A stretch of DNA of 53,813 nt from a virus (taxonomy: Duplodnaviria; Caudoviricetes): the IMG/VR virus record IMGVR_UViG_3300020109_000024, positions 1-53,813 of that record; one strand, written 5' to 3'. Below the pieces are notes generated by a model, which worked only from the letters and a program-made list of their open reading frames with translations, made no database searches and was not told the DNA's origin. This document shows positions 4,935-40,455 of the stretch, piece after piece (the first letter of the stretch is position 1; the number at the start of each line of letters is the position of its first letter). The translations under genes and the position numbers were made by a program.

Positions 4935-5011
<77 letters not shown>

Positions 5012-35384: not shown

Positions 35385-35418
35385 CGTGCGCCTTCCACAA
35401 GGCAAGCCGGTGGTATCA

Positions 35419-35466
35419 TTGACGAGTGAACCTGTATGGGTTAACTAACGAACCATATCAGGTTCA
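35419..35466 (+). promoter_or_regulatory. Promoter with two palindromic operators for the XRE-IrrE operon
   Basis: TTGACG at 35419; TGAACC-N6-GGTTAA (35427-35444) and CGAACC-N6-GGTTCA (35449-35466). Confidence 0.7.
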
Positions 35467-35489
35467 AGCTCGGAGACGAGGATGACGCC

Positions 35490-35852
35490 ATGCTCACGCC
35501 GTTTGGAAAATCACTGAGGAAGCTGAGGCTCGACCGCGGGTTGCTCCTCAAAGATATGGCCGACTTGCTCGACGTTTCCCCGTCGTTCCTGTCGGCTGTG
35601 GAGGCCGGACGCAAGGCTATACCCGCTCGAATTATCGACGAAATCGGGCATGGCTACAGCCTTAACTCCGCGGAAATAGACGATCTGCGACGTGCAGCTC
35701 TCGCATCTACCAAGGAAATGACTATTCGCTTCAACGGAAGCTCGACAGACGCTGATAGGGAAGCAGCTGCGCTTCTTGCGCGCACCTTCGAAAACGGTGT
35801 GTCTGATGACTTCCTTGCAGGTCTGAAAGACCTTCTTGATAGGAAACGATGA
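35490..35852 (+). CDS. XRE-family HTH regulator
   Basis: FGKSLRKLR...LKDMADLLDVSPSFLSAVEAGRK. Confidence 0.92.
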   Translation: MLTPFGKSLRKLRLDRGLLLKDMADLLDVSPSFLSAVEAGRKAIPARIIDEIGHGYSLNSAEIDDLRRAALASTKEMTIRFNGSSTDADREAAALLARTFENGVSDDFLAGLKDLLDRKR

Positions 35853-36397
35853 TGAGTGACGTTCGACTAGAGGCGGCTCCGCGTTCCAAAGCTGAGATCG
35901 CCGCAATCGGTTGGAAAATCCGTGAACAGTTCCACCTGACGGAGCCATTCCTGCCTGTGGCCGCCCTAGTCGAGGTAATTCTGCCTCGCGCTCTCGGAGA
36001 CCGGTTCATTTTCACAGTCAAGGATAAGTACGAGATGGGTAATCGGCACGGATGCGTCGATCCCAGTACCGGTGAATTGAGTCTTCGAGAGGATGTTTAT
36101 GACGGCTTATGTCGTGGCGTAGGGCGCGATCGTTTCACAGCATGCCATGAGTTGGGGCATTGGATGCTGCACCGAGGATCGACGCTCAACCGTGTCGGCC
36201 GCGAGAAGCACATCCCAGCCTACCGAGATCCGGAATGGCAGGCCAATGAGTTTTCAGCCTCGATCTTGATGCCGCGGCCGCTCATTTCGAGGTACAGAAG
36301 TGCTCGCGAGATAGCGCAGGACTTCGGAGTTTCTTTGGACGCTGCTGATTACCGAGTGCGAAAGCTCGGTTTGCACCAGCAGGGCCAAGGCAGCTGA
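35849..36397 (+). CDS. ImmA/IrrE family Zn metallopeptidase
   Basis: RDRFTACHELGH (HExxH) and EWQANEFSASILMP; ATGA overlap with XRE. Confidence 0.92.
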   Translation: MMSDVRLEAAPRSKAEIAAIGWKIREQFHLTEPFLPVAALVEVILPRALGDRFIFTVKDKYEMGNRHGCVDPSTGELSLREDVYDGLCRGVGRDRFTACHELGHWMLHRGSTLNRVGREKHIPAYRDPEWQANEFSASILMPRPLISRYRSAREIAQDFGVSLDAADYRVRKLGLHQQGQGS

Positions 36398-36551
36398 GGC
36401 CAATCGGTTTAGCGATCAGCCTCAGCCGTTCTGCGCTGGCACGCGCGAGCGGAGGTCCACCCGCGAAAGCCGTCTCTGGTGTAAGCAACCGGGATGTAGC
36501 CTCCAGCGGCAACGGACACAAGACCCAAGTGCCGGATTGGAGGTGTGTCAT

Positions 36552-36692
36552 GTGCGACGATTAGGGACTTCTGTACCCCCTCCGGGATTTCGCTGGGTAT
36601 TTTGCCGCTTCCGCCGCGTGAAGAACTCAACCCGGGTTCTTGACGCTTGGGAGTATGGCTACGAGGCCTGGGCTTTCCTGGTCCGAGCGTAA
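36552..36692 (+). CDS. Unannotated 46-aa protein MRRLGTSVPPPGFRWVFCRFRRVKNSTRVLDAWEYGYEAWAFLVRA
   Basis: GGAGGT RBS 7 nt before GTG; basic/aromatic protein-like composition; below the ORF-track cutoff. Confidence 0.7.
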   Translation: MRRLGTSVPPPGFRWVFCRFRRVKNSTRVLDAWEYGYEAWAFLVRA

Positions 36693-37428
36693 AATTCGAG
36701 GAGTCCAATTCTTTCGCATTGGCTCCACTCGTTCGGTCTAAGTCTGAGGGCGACCGCGGCACGCTTTTGCCCTTAGGCACTGTGGAGAAACTCTATCTCA
36801 GCTTTGATGCGAGGGACGGACATGACGGCTGCAAAGTTGGGCCCTGAAAGGACTGGCAACCACAAGCGCTAAAAGCGCCCACGCACAAGCTACATACATC
36901 CGCAGCTTAGGCTTGGCATTCCTATCTGCGATGTATCTGGCGGGAGCCAAGGGGTATCTCTAGCCAGAGGTAGCGCGCGTTTTAGCTCGGACCTCACATC
37001 AACTGATAGGAGTGGGGTCCGGTAAGCCGATTATATTCCGGGGCCGCGAGCATCCGCTTCCGCACCTCGGCCATGCGGTCGTCATCGCGAGCGCCGAGGC
37101 TGATAGATGACGCGCTCGGCGATCAGTTGGATGTTTTTCAGGTGGCAGCGGCTGGTGGGCATTGCTGCCCGTTCGCATGGTCGAGGCGGCTGCCTATGAC
37201 ATCGGGCCAGCGACGGGGGATCTCGCTCCACACCGTCCCATAGTTTAGCTGCGTGAGTTGCAATATGCCGCCGACTTGGCAGGTTCCGTTGGCTTAGTCG
37301 CCTTGGATCGAAATGCGTTGCTGTCGGGCGGCGCAGACGATCTACCCCGTGTCAAAACTAATCGCCGTGTCCAACACTGACTGATTTTCGCATCTTGATC
37401 CCCCCAACAGACTGGAGGGTACTTCAAG

Positions 37429-38388
37429 ATGATGCCTCGCAATCCAATTGAAGCCGATTGGCTCATTCGTTCTGCCGAAGAAGAGGCCGCGCGCGCCGAG
37501 CGCTGGGCTGCCGTAGCGCAGCAGCAGATGGCATACCAAGCTGCCATGGCGAAGGCGCACGCCGCCGACGCTGCCGGGCTCCGGGCCCTTTGGACCTTCG
37601 GGTCACTGCCCACCCCTGGATCGGTCGATCAGCCGAATCGGCCCGAGGTGGCGGTGGCCATCGAGGTGCCTGCACCCGAGCCGGTCGAGCCACCCAGATG
37701 CCGGTTCTGCGGGAAGCCGACACGGATCTGGCAGGGGAAGCCGCAAAGGTTCTGCACGTTCTCAAAAATAGCCTCTGGCTATTCGTGCTCCCATCGGTGG
37801 CGCGATCAACGCAACACGGAGCTCAGGAGGAAGGCGAAGGCGGAGGCGCAGAGGGAGAGGGCAGAGATCTTGGCAGTCGATCTGCCGGATATCGCCTGCA
37901 CCGAGGTCGCGTCGATCACATCGGAGGCTCCAACGTGCCGGCAATGCGGCAAGCCCACACGCATCTGGAGAGGCAGGCCTCAGAAGTTCTGCTCGCCACC
38001 CGCCGGCCGCACGACCTCTCCCTGCGCGTCGGCATTCCATTGCCGGGCTCAGCGGGGGCGGTCCACGCGGAGCCCGGCACAACGCGCGCGTCGGGCGAAC
38101 AAGCAGCCCGAACCGGTTCGCCCGACCGGATCGGTTCTGGCGACGGCCTCTCCACGGGCAGAGGGGCATGACCTCCTGGCGACGGTGACGCGCGCAGTCT
38201 CGGCGAGCCTGCCCGACGAACTGCGATCGGAGATCATCAGCGAGACGGTCGTGCTCATGCTTGAGGGGGCGAAGCTCGCGGATGCCATAGCCGAAGCCTC
38301 GAAAAGCGTCCGTAGGAACGCCGCACCGCTCCGCTACACCAAATCGATCGACGACTGCTTTTGGCTGGCGGAGGAGCCGTCGGACTGA
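37429..38388 (+). CDS. Tandem zinc-finger protein, paralog A
   Basis: Two CxxCGKPTR-x9-C...C units; C-terminal 85 aa shared with 44248-45516; GGAGG RBS. Confidence 0.8.
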   Translation: MMPRNPIEADWLIRSAEEEAARAERWAAVAQQQMAYQAAMAKAHAADAAGLRALWTFGSLPTPGSVDQPNRPEVAVAIEVPAPEPVEPPRCRFCGKPTRIWQGKPQRFCTFSKIASGYSCSHRWRDQRNTELRRKAKAEAQRERAEILAVDLPDIACTEVASITSEAPTCRQCGKPTRIWRGRPQKFCSPPAGRTTSPCASAFHCRAQRGRSTRSPAQRARRANKQPEPVRPTGSVLATASPRAEGHDLLATVTRAVSASLPDELRSEIISETVVLMLEGAKLADAIAEASKSVRRNAAPLRYTKSIDDCFWLAEEPSD

Positions 38389-38399
38389 GGTAAGGGCCT

Positions 38400-38760
38400 A
38401 CGGCGGCCCTGCGTCCGCTCACGACTGATGCTGGAAGCACGGCGGAGTAGAAGGCCGCGCTTCCAGTTCTAGCGTATCGGTCCGCGCCGCACGGGATGAC
38501 TCTACCGGCGCGGACGATCACCATTCGCTCGGAGTTCTGCCGCGGCGGTGCCGGTGAATTGGGCAATGCTTGTGTCCTGCCCCTGGACACGGTCAGCCAT
38601 GCTGGCGACCACCACGACGGCGGTCATGGCAACGAATTTCGAGTTGCACATCAACAACATGATCGAAAAAGGCCTGTTGCGCGTGGCGATGAGGCGGCGG
38701 AGGCAGCGGGCTTCACCCGGTCCGGCTTCATCGAGCGGCCGCTTGAGGCCGCGACGGACG
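38400..38760 (+). pseudogene. Degraded HicB-like antitoxin (boundaries approximate)
   Basis: Fragments in different frames: INNMIEKGLLR and DEAAEAAGFTRSGFIE (RHH-like); upstream AGSTAE*...LPART. Confidence 0.45.
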
Positions 38761-38907: not shown

Positions 38908-39564
38908 TCAGAACTCGCCGGCATCGGGGTCGTACTCCCGCTCGTGGTGGCCGAAGGCAGCGGTCAAATTGTCAGAGACTGTATGCGCGCAACAGATCGC
39001 GCAGGTCGGCGGGTACGCTGCCGCGGAAAGCACGTCGTAAGCAGCTAGGAGAGAGCCGCCCGTCGTAATGACATCGTCTACCAGGATGACAGCCCTCGAT
39101 CTCGGCCGAGAGATTAGGACCATACCCTCTGCCAGTGCTGTCCGGTCGCGCGTGCCACCAGCTGCAGCTCGTTCCATCTCCTTGCTGAAGCGCAGGATGC
39201 ACTCAACGTTGGCTTCGAGGTCCGACCCGGCCATCGCCTCTCTGACCATTTCAGCAGAACGGTAGGTTTCCGCCCTGACGAGACCATCTTTCGAGGGGAC
39301 GGGGATAATCGAAGGATCTTCGATACCGAGATGGGAGATTCGGCCCCTCACGAAAGACCCGAAAATTTCCCTGGCACGATGAACGTTTTTTGTATCGATC
39401 TCTTCGTGCGGCTTGTTCTTCCACGGAACAGTCATATAGCCGTTAATCAAGCCGCTCTTTACTGCGCGAGTGAACTTGAACGCATCCCATTGCTTCTGCG
39501 TGCGCGGAGCAAGGTTTTTATGCGCATACTGGGAATAGTAAGCGCACATGAAGTGAACGTTCAT
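38908..39564 (-). CDS. Phosphoribosyltransferase (ShosT/ComFC-like)
   Basis: IIPVPS and PRPP-binding VILVDDVITTGGSL; ATG overlaps the DprA stop (ATGA). Confidence 0.85.
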   Translation of the reverse strand: MNVHFMCAYYSQYAHKNLAPRTQKQWDAFKFTRAVKSGLINGYMTVPWKNKPHEEIDTKNVHRAREIFGSFVRGRISHLGIEDPSIIPVPSKDGLVRAETYRSAEMVREAMAGSDLEANVECILRFSKEMERAAAGGTRDRTALAEGMVLISRPRSRAVILVDDVITTGGSLLAAYDVLSAAAYPPTCAICCAHTVSDNLTAAFGHHEREYDPDAGEF

Positions 39565-40280
39565 GGGGAGCTTTTGATCGCGTCCAGCAGGTCTGCGGTC
39601 GACGTGAGAATGCGGACATTCTTGTCGCCTAGAAAGCGATTGGGCCACGTTAGGGTTGTGTCGTCAACCACTGATCGCATGATGAAGAGCCAGCGCTTCA
39701 GCCGCCCACACTCCGCCGCTTGATGCAGCGTGCCGGACGTGTCCGAAGCCTCCACGATCACCGTCGCATCCGAGATGGCAGCCATGACACGATTCCGCTT
39801 GGGGAAATTGCTGCGGAAAGTGCGCTCCCCGATCTCGAAAGGTGTCAGGAGAAGGTGGTTGCGCCAGACGGTCTCCTGAAGCTCAGAGTTCTCGGCGGGG
39901 TACGCCTTATCGAGAGGAGTCCCGATAATGCCGACCACGGAGCCATCGTGATCGATCGCGGACGTGATCGCCGCCGTATCGACGCCCTTGGCGAGACCAC
40001 TAACTACGGTCACACCAGCGGCAGCGAGTTCACGCGAAAGGCGAGCGGCACGCTTCCAGCCGGCGTCTGAAACGTCCCGGGTTCCCACGATCGACACGCA
40101 TGGGCGCTTCAGCAGATCGAGGCTGCCGGCATAGTAGACGGATGCGGAACCGGACCCATCGCCTGTTCGCAGGAGATCCATCTGCTTCGCAGCGAGCGGG
40201 GCGCGGCCGATCTCCGCCAGCAAGTCTGCCAGCCCTATAGAAGAAGGTGCGCTGGGCGCTTGGTAGCGCCGACGCGTCAT
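39561..40280 (-). CDS. DprA/Smf-like protein (ShosA-like)
   Basis: VSIVGTR, VVSGLAKGVD, FPKRNRVM, VEASDTSGTL. Confidence 0.9.
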   Translation of the reverse strand: MTRRRYQAPSAPSSIGLADLLAEIGRAPLAAKQMDLLRTGDGSGSASVYYAGSLDLLKRPCVSIVGTRDVSDAGWKRAARLSRELAAAGVTVVSGLAKGVDTAAITSAIDHDGSVVGIIGTPLDKAYPAENSELQETVWRNHLLLTPFEIGERTFRSNFPKRNRVMAAISDATVIVEASDTSGTLHQAAECGRLKRWLFIMRSVVDDTTLTWPNRFLGDKNVRILTSTADLLDAIKSSP

Positions 40281-40455
40281 CTCCCTCATTGTCGGCTCAG
40301 CGATGCTCATACAGCCAAGTTGCGCGCTCAAGCTTAACCATCCCCTAAGCTCCGCCGCCACCCGACAACCTAGTTAACAACGCGTCAGCTGTCGCGCCTT
40401 TCCCGGTATCAGAAAGCTGTTGATCCCCAACGGGTTCCAACGTTAAGCGGCCGAT

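Follow-up and report, generated by a model that had tools for sequence, protein, structure and literature searches.

The IMG/VR virus record IMGVR_UViG_3300020109_000024 is a 53.8-kb stretch of DNA with about 70% G+C, referred to here as the window. On its plus strand, a gene for an XRE-type helix-turn-helix (HTH) protein and a gene for an ImmA/IrrE M78 metallopeptidase are followed by a spacer of 154 nucleotides (nt) and then by a gene for a protein of 46 amino acids (aa). What is the role of this spacer? A preliminary description, made from the sequence alone, proposed that it is a switch-like RNA leader, in which mutually exclusive OFF and ON folds gate the ribosome-binding site (RBS) of the small open reading frame (ORF) as in the leaders of type I toxins.

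We found that the spacers preceding this small gene constitute a structured RNA family without an Rfam match. Covariation was observed in the relatives of the window for a pseudoknot and for the helices termed P2, Ha, and Hb. Within the family, support is firm for the pseudoknot adjoining the RBS, and hiding of the Shine-Dalgarno (SD) sequence is plausible and unproven. We describe a new cis-regulatory leader family, for which the switch is partly supported. On balance, we lean slightly toward the view that the window leader is a divergent form of a pseudoknotted mRNA leader that sets initiation on the 46-aa gene by competing pairings at the RBS. We infer that the pairings regulate translation, and likewise which of the states is on and what tips the balance between them.

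A pseudoknot beside the ribosome-binding site

Our comparison covered 237 related loci on viral contigs (80 of 108 relatives kept), genome contigs (80 of 127 kept), and metagenome contigs (77). Two groups of leaders were analyzed separately. Group A comprised 38 clusters in an alignment, A5, from which the window was left out. Group B comprised 25 leader clusters in a MAFFT alignment that was not fitted to any structure. In group A, six of the seven base pairs of hairpin P2 showed changes on both sides, as did seven of the eight pairs of the pseudoknot formed between the P2 loop and the tract 5' of the SD. The pseudoknot of group B is built from a 7-nt bulge and the loop of the hairpin just 5' of the SD, and six of its seven pairs carried two-sided changes, with 95.4% of the cells paired. 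Changes on both sides were also found for four of the six pairs of helix Ha and two of the four pairs of helix Hb. Taking all helices of group B together, 92.7% of the cells were paired compared with 82.4% in shuffles (0/500), and at most 54% were paired when the partner strand was slid. The corresponding values for group A were 65.9% and 52.8% (0/500). An earlier 62-row MAFFT alignment, A4, yielded only fragments in the helix search because its loops were out of register, and the 38-row A5 was used instead. Two further candidate helices of group A, P3 and P4, were dropped, as only 53-55% of their cells were paired in an alignment made independently of minimum free energy (MFE) folds.

The pairing was also evident without any alignment. 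Across 111 leader clusters, the longest helix between the upstream domain and the pre-SD tract of the same leader averaged 7.59 bp, as opposed to 6.43 bp for non-cognate combinations (z 10.9, 0/5000 permutations), and helices of at least 7 bp occurred in 85% of the cognate and 43% of the non-cognate pairs. Duplex energies of cognate and non-cognate combinations differed likewise (z -11.7, 86 clusters). When G-U pairs were allowed, the helix test gave z 11.0, whereas allowing A-C pairs, as the opposite strand would need, gave z 4.8. Since G-U pairs keep the pairing signal better than A-C pairs, this comparison favors the plus strand; the counts from group B alone, 17 G-U against 13 A-C, do not decide.

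Besides the helices, short unpaired motifs are conserved. For the motif UA, group B shows no variation at either position, A5 has an invariant T and a nearly invariant A (at least 90%), and in A4 both bases are nearly invariant. For the motif CAAG, A5 has an invariant CAA and a nearly invariant G (at least 90%), and A4 is nearly invariant throughout the motif. Known RNA families did not account for the leaders. Rfam 15 reported only the tRNA in the whole window at the gathering threshold and nothing at E≤5 in 36200-37600. Among 11 typical relatives, the search gave six sub-threshold matches only (E 0.14-0.67), of which a single one fell on a leader, on the minus strand of locus L024, with 28.1 bits against a gathering score of 45.

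The window leader and its predicted competing pairings

The elements of the window leader and its flanking genes, all on the plus strand, are as follows.

35490-35852, plus strand: XRE-type HTH gene (CapH-like), first gene of the module (Pfam HTH_31 6.5e-08, HTH_3 8e-07; PADLOC capH 3e-07)
35849-36397, plus strand: ImmA/IrrE M78 metallopeptidase gene (CapP-like; Pfam Peptidase_M78 1.5e-12; PADLOC capP 1.2e-18), with HExxH as HELGH in the translation
36393-36426, plus strand: hairpin 1 (P1), GCTGAGGC at 36393-36400 with GCCTCAGC at 36419-36426 (MFE folds)
36427-36451, plus strand: hairpin 2 of the full-length fold (MFE fold)
36451-36456, plus strand: second, SD-like GGAGGT, alternative partner of the anti-SD, its first G within hairpin 2 (MFE of the leader prefix)
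36471-36496, plus strand: hairpin 3, with the loop GTAAGCA at 36481-36487 that includes the conserved AGCA (MFE folds; AGCA(A)C aligns with the relatives)
36497-36498, plus strand: conserved unpaired UA of GUAG (alignments of relatives)
36499-36506, plus strand: anti-SD GCCTCCAG (pair probabilities of 0.61-1.0 with 36537-36544)
36507-36534, plus strand: clamp CGGCA (36507-36511) / TGCCG (36530-36534), enclosing the conserved CAAG at 36519-36522, which is repeated at 36526-36529 (MFE folds)
36537-36544, plus strand: SD region TTGGAGGT, core 36539-36543, 7 nt before GTG 36552 (GGAGGT is nearly invariant in the group A alignment)
36550-36564, plus strand: out-of-frame ATG mini-ORF of four codons plus stop, overlapping the real start (sequence)
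36552-36692, plus strand: conserved 46-aa gene with GTG start, basic and beta-rich product, member of phrog_33859 (9e-17; 25 homologues; AlphaFold2 mean pLDDT, the predicted local distance difference test, of 89)

Reading of the sequence and RNAfold placed the three hairpins, the anti-SD, the SD, the CGGCA/TGCCG clamp, and the second GGAGGT where the preliminary description had located them. Folding 36393-36554 returned exactly the helices listed, at -69.2 kcal/mol. Hairpin 1 was said to extend over the end of the protease gene, and the TGA stop codon of the M78 peptidase gene (36395-36397) indeed lies inside its stem. The loop of hairpin 1 (36403-36416 in the window) and its counterparts in the relatives share a recurring motif resembling UUGGCG, UUGCAG, or UUAGCG on otherwise different stems, so that hairpin 1 may be part of the functional RNA and not only a terminator.

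In the folding model of 36393-36575, the anti-SD and the SD pair with probabilities of 0.61-1.0, reaching 0.98-1.0 in the core, and thus the RBS would be hidden in silico. Forcing the SD open is predicted to cost 8.4 kcal/mol and forcing the pairing GGAGG:CCUCC 7.9 kcal/mol, so that the model favors the closed state by about 8 kcal/mol. The pairing probability of the window SD was 0.999, compared with a mean of 0.73 when the upstream part was shuffled, and none of 20 shuffles reached the window value. A different fold is predicted for the nascent RNA: in the MFE structure of the prefix that ends at 36536, before the SD exists, 36451-36456 pairs with 36499-36504.

These predictions suggest two states. 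In the closed and stable state, 36499-36506 would pair with the SD at 36537-36544, held by the CGGCA/TGCCG clamp. In the open state, which would be the first to form during transcription, 36499-36506 would instead pair with the GGAGGT at 36451-36456 and leave the SD free. In the relatives, the counterpart would be the pseudoknot, in which purines of an upstream loop or bulge pair with the pyrimidines adjoining the SD. Kinetics, a ligand, or a protein, for which the small basic product is a candidate, might tip the balance.

The leaders of group A offer a close parallel. A local SD hairpin, in which at least three bases of the SD core are paired to the 20 nt upstream, was present in all 37 leaders, and in 24 of the 37 the 3' strand of the pseudoknot overlaps the local anti-SD by at least 3 nt. 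The P2 loops are themselves SD-like, for instance GGGAGG or GAGAGG. The pyrimidine tract thus serves both as pseudoknot strand and as anti-SD, and the two pairings exclude each other. This arrangement of SD, anti-SD, and decoy is the logic that the preliminary description had read from the window.

Several features bear on the relation of the window leader to this family. A covariance model of group A built without the window matched 42 of 100 representative loci at E≤0.01 and gave one match in the 53.8 kb on both strands, a full-length but weak match at 36445-36562 on the plus strand. AGCA (36484-36487), UA (36497-36498), and CAAG (36519-36522) occur in this order before a strong SD and align with the conserved columns. 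The GGAGGT at 36451-36456 lies approximately where the relatives have the purine-rich P2 loop, at -100 to -125 from the start. The spacer length also falls within the range of about 135-185 nt, from the upstream stop to the start of the small gene, that characterizes the family. The window anti-SD follows directly after UAG, about 30 nt before the SD and not beside it, and locus L073 is arranged alike. By its sequence, the window leader is best regarded as a divergent singleton.

A number of results weigh against the competing-pairing reading. The pairing of SD with anti-SD showed one-sided C/U changes only in the relatives, with none of five pairs compensatory and 81% of the cells paired. The absence of compensatory changes arises because the SD does not vary. 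The covariation among homologous spacers that had been suggested as a check was seen for the pseudoknot next to the SD but not for SD:anti-SD, and the proposed exclusive folds stand insofar as the window model hides the SD and the nascent GGAGGT takes the anti-SD, while compensatory support for the closed pairing is missing. Family-wide, the SD pairing probability of 0.747 did not clearly exceed the 0.723 obtained with shuffled upstream sequence (Wilcoxon p 0.06). The pseudoknot strands of group B are often not SD-like (e.g. GGUAAAC/GUUUACC), and the pseudoknot is thus not in itself an SD mimic. Within the window, the anti-SD lies about 20 nt further upstream than the pseudoknot strand of the family, and the GGAGGT:anti-SD pairs have a probability of about 0 at equilibrium. 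No close nucleotide relative of the window leader was found, blastn against all fetched loci returning only the SD block of 22-24 nt (L024, L126, L102). The group A model scored a weak 10.9 bits (E 0.21) on the window, and the group B model gave no match there. The reverse strand of the leader folds about as well (z -2.72; 1/200 shuffles) as the forward strand, for which z was -2.24 and six of 200 dinucleotide shuffles folded as well; because of this, fold energy alone cannot name the strand. The complementarity between the group A loop of P4 and the SD-to-AUG region, which would correspond to the window pairing, was weak (z 2.3, controls 1.1-1.7), and this pairing was dropped as a family feature.

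The small gene and its product

The small ORF had been proposed as the target of the leader. The gene is real; the ATG at 36550 opens only four codons, and the true start is GTG 36552. The phrog_33859 profile matched the TTG ORF 36537-36692 with an E-value of 9e-17 from residue 7 of the ORF on, over profile positions 4-55 of 57, i.e. along the whole length of the family. The 25 homologues have 45-58 aa with 67-87% identity to the 46-aa product and share 15 invariant columns, and their length fits the start at GTG 36552, 7 nt 3' of the SD. A profile search of 1.84 billion representatives gave 102 clusters at E≤1e-3 and 43 at E≤1e-10, nearly all of them short proteins aligned at the C-terminal end. 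Together with the covariation in the relatives, the profile match supports the proposal that the spacer is the structured leader of a genuine small gene.

The product contains nine Arg/Lys and three Asp/Glu residues, giving a net charge of about +6 as counted from the translation, and no hydrophobic segment. AlphaFold2 predicted four short strands and one helical turn with a mean pLDDT of 89. The protein had no family in Pfam or NCBIfam and no match in PADLOC, its best E-value in a PDB profile search was 0.55, and the ESM Atlas contained unnamed clusters only. Structure comparisons gave nothing at E≤0.001 with Foldseek against the PDB and a best Z of 2.3 in a wide VIA-align search.

The out-of-frame ATG is common in the family. 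Of 169 unique leaders, 87 have an ATG after the SD that is not in the frame of the small gene. Among all 156 leaders with an ATG, the ATG most often follows the SD at 5-6 nt, and in group A it hardly ever varies. Its role may be that of a decoy start or of a coupling device. The start of the small gene lies 2, 4, or 7 nt past the out-of-frame ATG (patterns ATGTG and ATGnATG) in leaders ranging from L011 to L249. The mini-ORFs have 1-81 codons and encode no conserved peptide.

The cassette and its partner genes

Loci were counted among the first 161 tblastn matches, 157 of which had a usable start. The nearest upstream ORF on the same strand ends 100-199 nt before the small gene in 139 of these 157 loci, and an upstream ORF with HExxH was found in 105. 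The relatives on genome contigs include Acinetobacter, Pseudomonas, Escherichia, Citrobacter, Pectobacterium, and Thiobacillus. An annotated E. coli chromosome carries, between tail genes and an integrase, an HTH gene, an ImmA/IrrE gene, a gap of 157 nt, and a gene for a hypothetical protein of 49 aa. A distant search with the Escherichia locus found 16 E. coli genomes, megablast with the same locus gave no match, and a protein search of a phage collection retrieved one unannotated record. The cassette occurs in prophages of many Proteobacteria, E. coli included.

The partner gene is not always the same. In group B loci, the upstream gene is unrelated to ImmA, encodes about 185-195 aa without a Pfam family, and matches phrog_2602 (5e-21 and 1e-22). 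Since they are found behind different partners, ImmA or phrog_2602, the leader and the small gene travel together. The regions concerned are L110 784-1914, L110 2280-2834, and L125 2253-2834; in L110, a gene for an IS110-family transposase lies just upstream of the phrog_2602 gene.

In the window, the two upstream genes form a CapH/CapP-like (ImmR/ImmA-like) pair, as judged from an XRE HTH protein adjoining an M78 peptidase with HExxH. Window DNA from 35400-38400 had no match in the phage genome collection, and the ImmA protein as bait led only to distant loci (27-40% identity) that did not help with the spacer. If the pair acts as such a switch, it would open transcription first, and the leader would be a second, translational gate. 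The place of the module behind a CapH/CapP-like pair makes it probable that production of the small protein begins only once the switch has opened.

Transcription and strand

In contigs from other samples the region was almost unchanged, and the leader showed two variants only, 36459 A>C and 36468 A>G, both at unpaired positions. From a metatranscriptome library comes a 404-nt contig (36384-36787) that takes in the leader with hairpin 1, the small gene, and about 95 nt past it while leaving out the peptidase gene, a hint of an RNA that is separate or has been processed. This contig is also a point against our preferred reading insofar as it is no proof of transcript ends or strand and may be DNA, its ends being uninformative. 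Scans of both strands of the window region and of two enterobacterial loci found no promoter-like site, which is weak evidence in a high-GC host. In the two enterobacterial loci, the plus strand has a site resembling an intrinsic terminator a short way past the small gene.

A hairpin right after the upstream stop is also present in the relatives, followed by a T-run in 3 of 86 and preceded by an A-run in 18 of 86. Where the A-run is present, for instance in locus L159, hairpin 1 reads as a terminator of the minus strand. This reading keeps an antisense RNA alive, albeit at low odds.

Alternative explanations

One alternative is an effector-dependent riboregulator, in which the pseudoknot and the unpaired UA and CAAG would form a putative protein or ligand site that decides access to the RBS. 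The effector could be the small basic product, by analogy with the autoregulated leaders of ribosomal proteins or T4 gene 32. We regard this as possible though rather unlikely. It would accommodate the observation that both leader groups conserve UA and CAA(G) completely or almost completely while the surrounding helices vary, and that the pseudoknot is kept even when its strands are not SD-like. The very basic, beta-rich product (net charge about +6) and the association of the leader with the small gene behind two unrelated partners, ImmA or phrog_2602, point in the same direction. However, Rfam contained no riboswitch matching the leader, and PDB profile, Foldseek, and VIA-align searches revealed no known nucleic-acid-binding fold for the 46-aa protein. 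A broader proposal, which we consider speculative and doubtful, is that the leader and the 46-aa gene are an autonomous and widespread prophage cassette, the RNA representing a new sensor class (a riboswitch or a small-protein operator) and the protein an effector released by a CapH/CapP-type DNA-damage switch, e.g. as a trigger of induction or of an abortive response.

The remaining explanations appear improbable to us. A type I toxin-antitoxin-like locus would encode a harmful product whose mRNA is silenced by fold-back and by an antisense RNA ending at hairpin 1. The sequestered SD and the metastable alternative fold agree with it, the reverse strand folds as well as the forward strand, and the A-run of hairpin 1 in 18 of 86 relatives (locus L159) would serve as an intrinsic terminator on the minus strand. 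The product, however, is predicted to be a small beta sheet without a hydrophobic segment and has no PADLOC or Pfam match. Neither strand of the window region or of the two enterobacterial loci showed a promoter-like site, and the G-U versus A-C comparison favors the plus strand. The second of these explanations is that the pairings are incidental, with hairpin 1 ending or stabilizing the XRE-ImmA transcript, the rest being a GC-rich spacer, possibly with a promoter, and the family fold lost in the window. The words GGAGG and CCTCC are short and the spacer has about 60% G+C, the fold z-score is only -2.24, SD pairing is common even with a shuffled upstream part (mean 0.72-0.73), and the window has no close relatives and only a weak match to the family model (E 0.21). 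On the other hand, the 154-nt spacer length and the motifs AGCA, UA, and CAAG are kept, and 0 of 20 shuffles reached the SD pairing of the window. The variants at 36459 and 36468 both fall in unpaired positions, although two sites are weak evidence.

Other features of the window

The leader region has a G+C content of 57-62%, below the rest of the window, and a tRNA-Met is located at 4935-5011. Beyond the small gene, a stretch of about 50 nt at 37043-37097 is also found in several further sequence surroundings in three metagenome runs, where its depth is raised and its ends are loose on either side. As an attachment site this stretch was rejected, since it has no repeat shared with the tRNA-Met region. 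An ORF of 319 aa at 37429-38388 on the plus strand has no family in Pfam, PHROGs, NCBIfam, or PADLOC and contains two copies of the Cys motif CxxCGKPTRIW...FC, also seen as the direct DNA repeat D1. On the minus strand, at 38908-40361, a DprA-like gene (PADLOC ShosA 3e-63; Pfam DNA_processg_A 4.9e-50) overlaps a phosphoribosyltransferase gene (ShosT 8.9e-06), which by these matches make up a ShosTA-like defence or toxin-antitoxin pair next to the module.

Comparison with known systems

The leader was described neither in the literature searched nor in the main text of a 2017 catalogue of 224 candidate RNAs (PMC5737381). The leader family seems not to have been described previously.

Leaders of type I toxin mRNAs such as hok/sok, tisB/istR-1, and symE/symR are long and structured at the 5' end, hide the SD by pairing it with a distant complementary tract, and fold differently while nascent. 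The window leader resembles them in these traits, as far as its folding model shows, and it recalls symE in particular as a small gene behind a transcriptional switch linked to DNA damage. In contrast, its product is predicted to be a basic beta-sheet protein without a hydrophobic segment and not a membrane peptide, promoter scans found no antisense RNA, and the best-supported helix of the family is a pseudoknot between an upstream loop and a tract beside the SD. The comparison with type I toxins made in the preliminary description is therefore a resemblance in RNA logic only, and the view of the product as such a toxin is not supported.

A pseudoknot that acts on the SD is also known from the preQ1-II/III and SAM-II/V riboswitches. 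The shared traits are an H-type pseudoknot at the RBS, invariant unpaired bases, and the 5' leader position. Unlike in these riboswitches, the pseudoknot of the leader takes a tract 5' of the SD, which in group A is the anti-SD, and not the SD itself; furthermore, the context is a phage regulatory module, and Rfam gave no match at any threshold tried. Autoregulatory leader pseudoknots are found in T4 gene 32 and in the operons of the ribosomal proteins S15 and S4. As in these leaders, the pseudoknot lies upstream of the RBS and the small basic product may, by analogy, bind nucleic acid, although there is no relation in sequence or fold.

The pairs ImmR/ImmA, CapH/CapP, and DdrO/IrrE are known to switch transcription in response to DNA damage in prophages, mobile elements, and immune operons. 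The window resembles them in its tandem of an XRE HTH gene and an M78 peptidase gene, and differs in that a structured leader and a 46-aa gene come after the pair on the same strand. According to a preprint on CapH/CapP, DNA damage leads to cleavage of the repressor, the pair is associated with many immune operons, and capH and capP mostly lie upstream of, and opposite to, the operon they regulate (10.1101/2022.04.27.489752). If the leader does gate translation, it would provide a second, RNA-level safety on a product that the phage keeps tightly controlled, and the cassette in E. coli would offer a tractable system for the function of the small protein. If the cassette proves to be a sensor, it would add an RNA gate to immune or prophage regulators of the CapH/CapP type.

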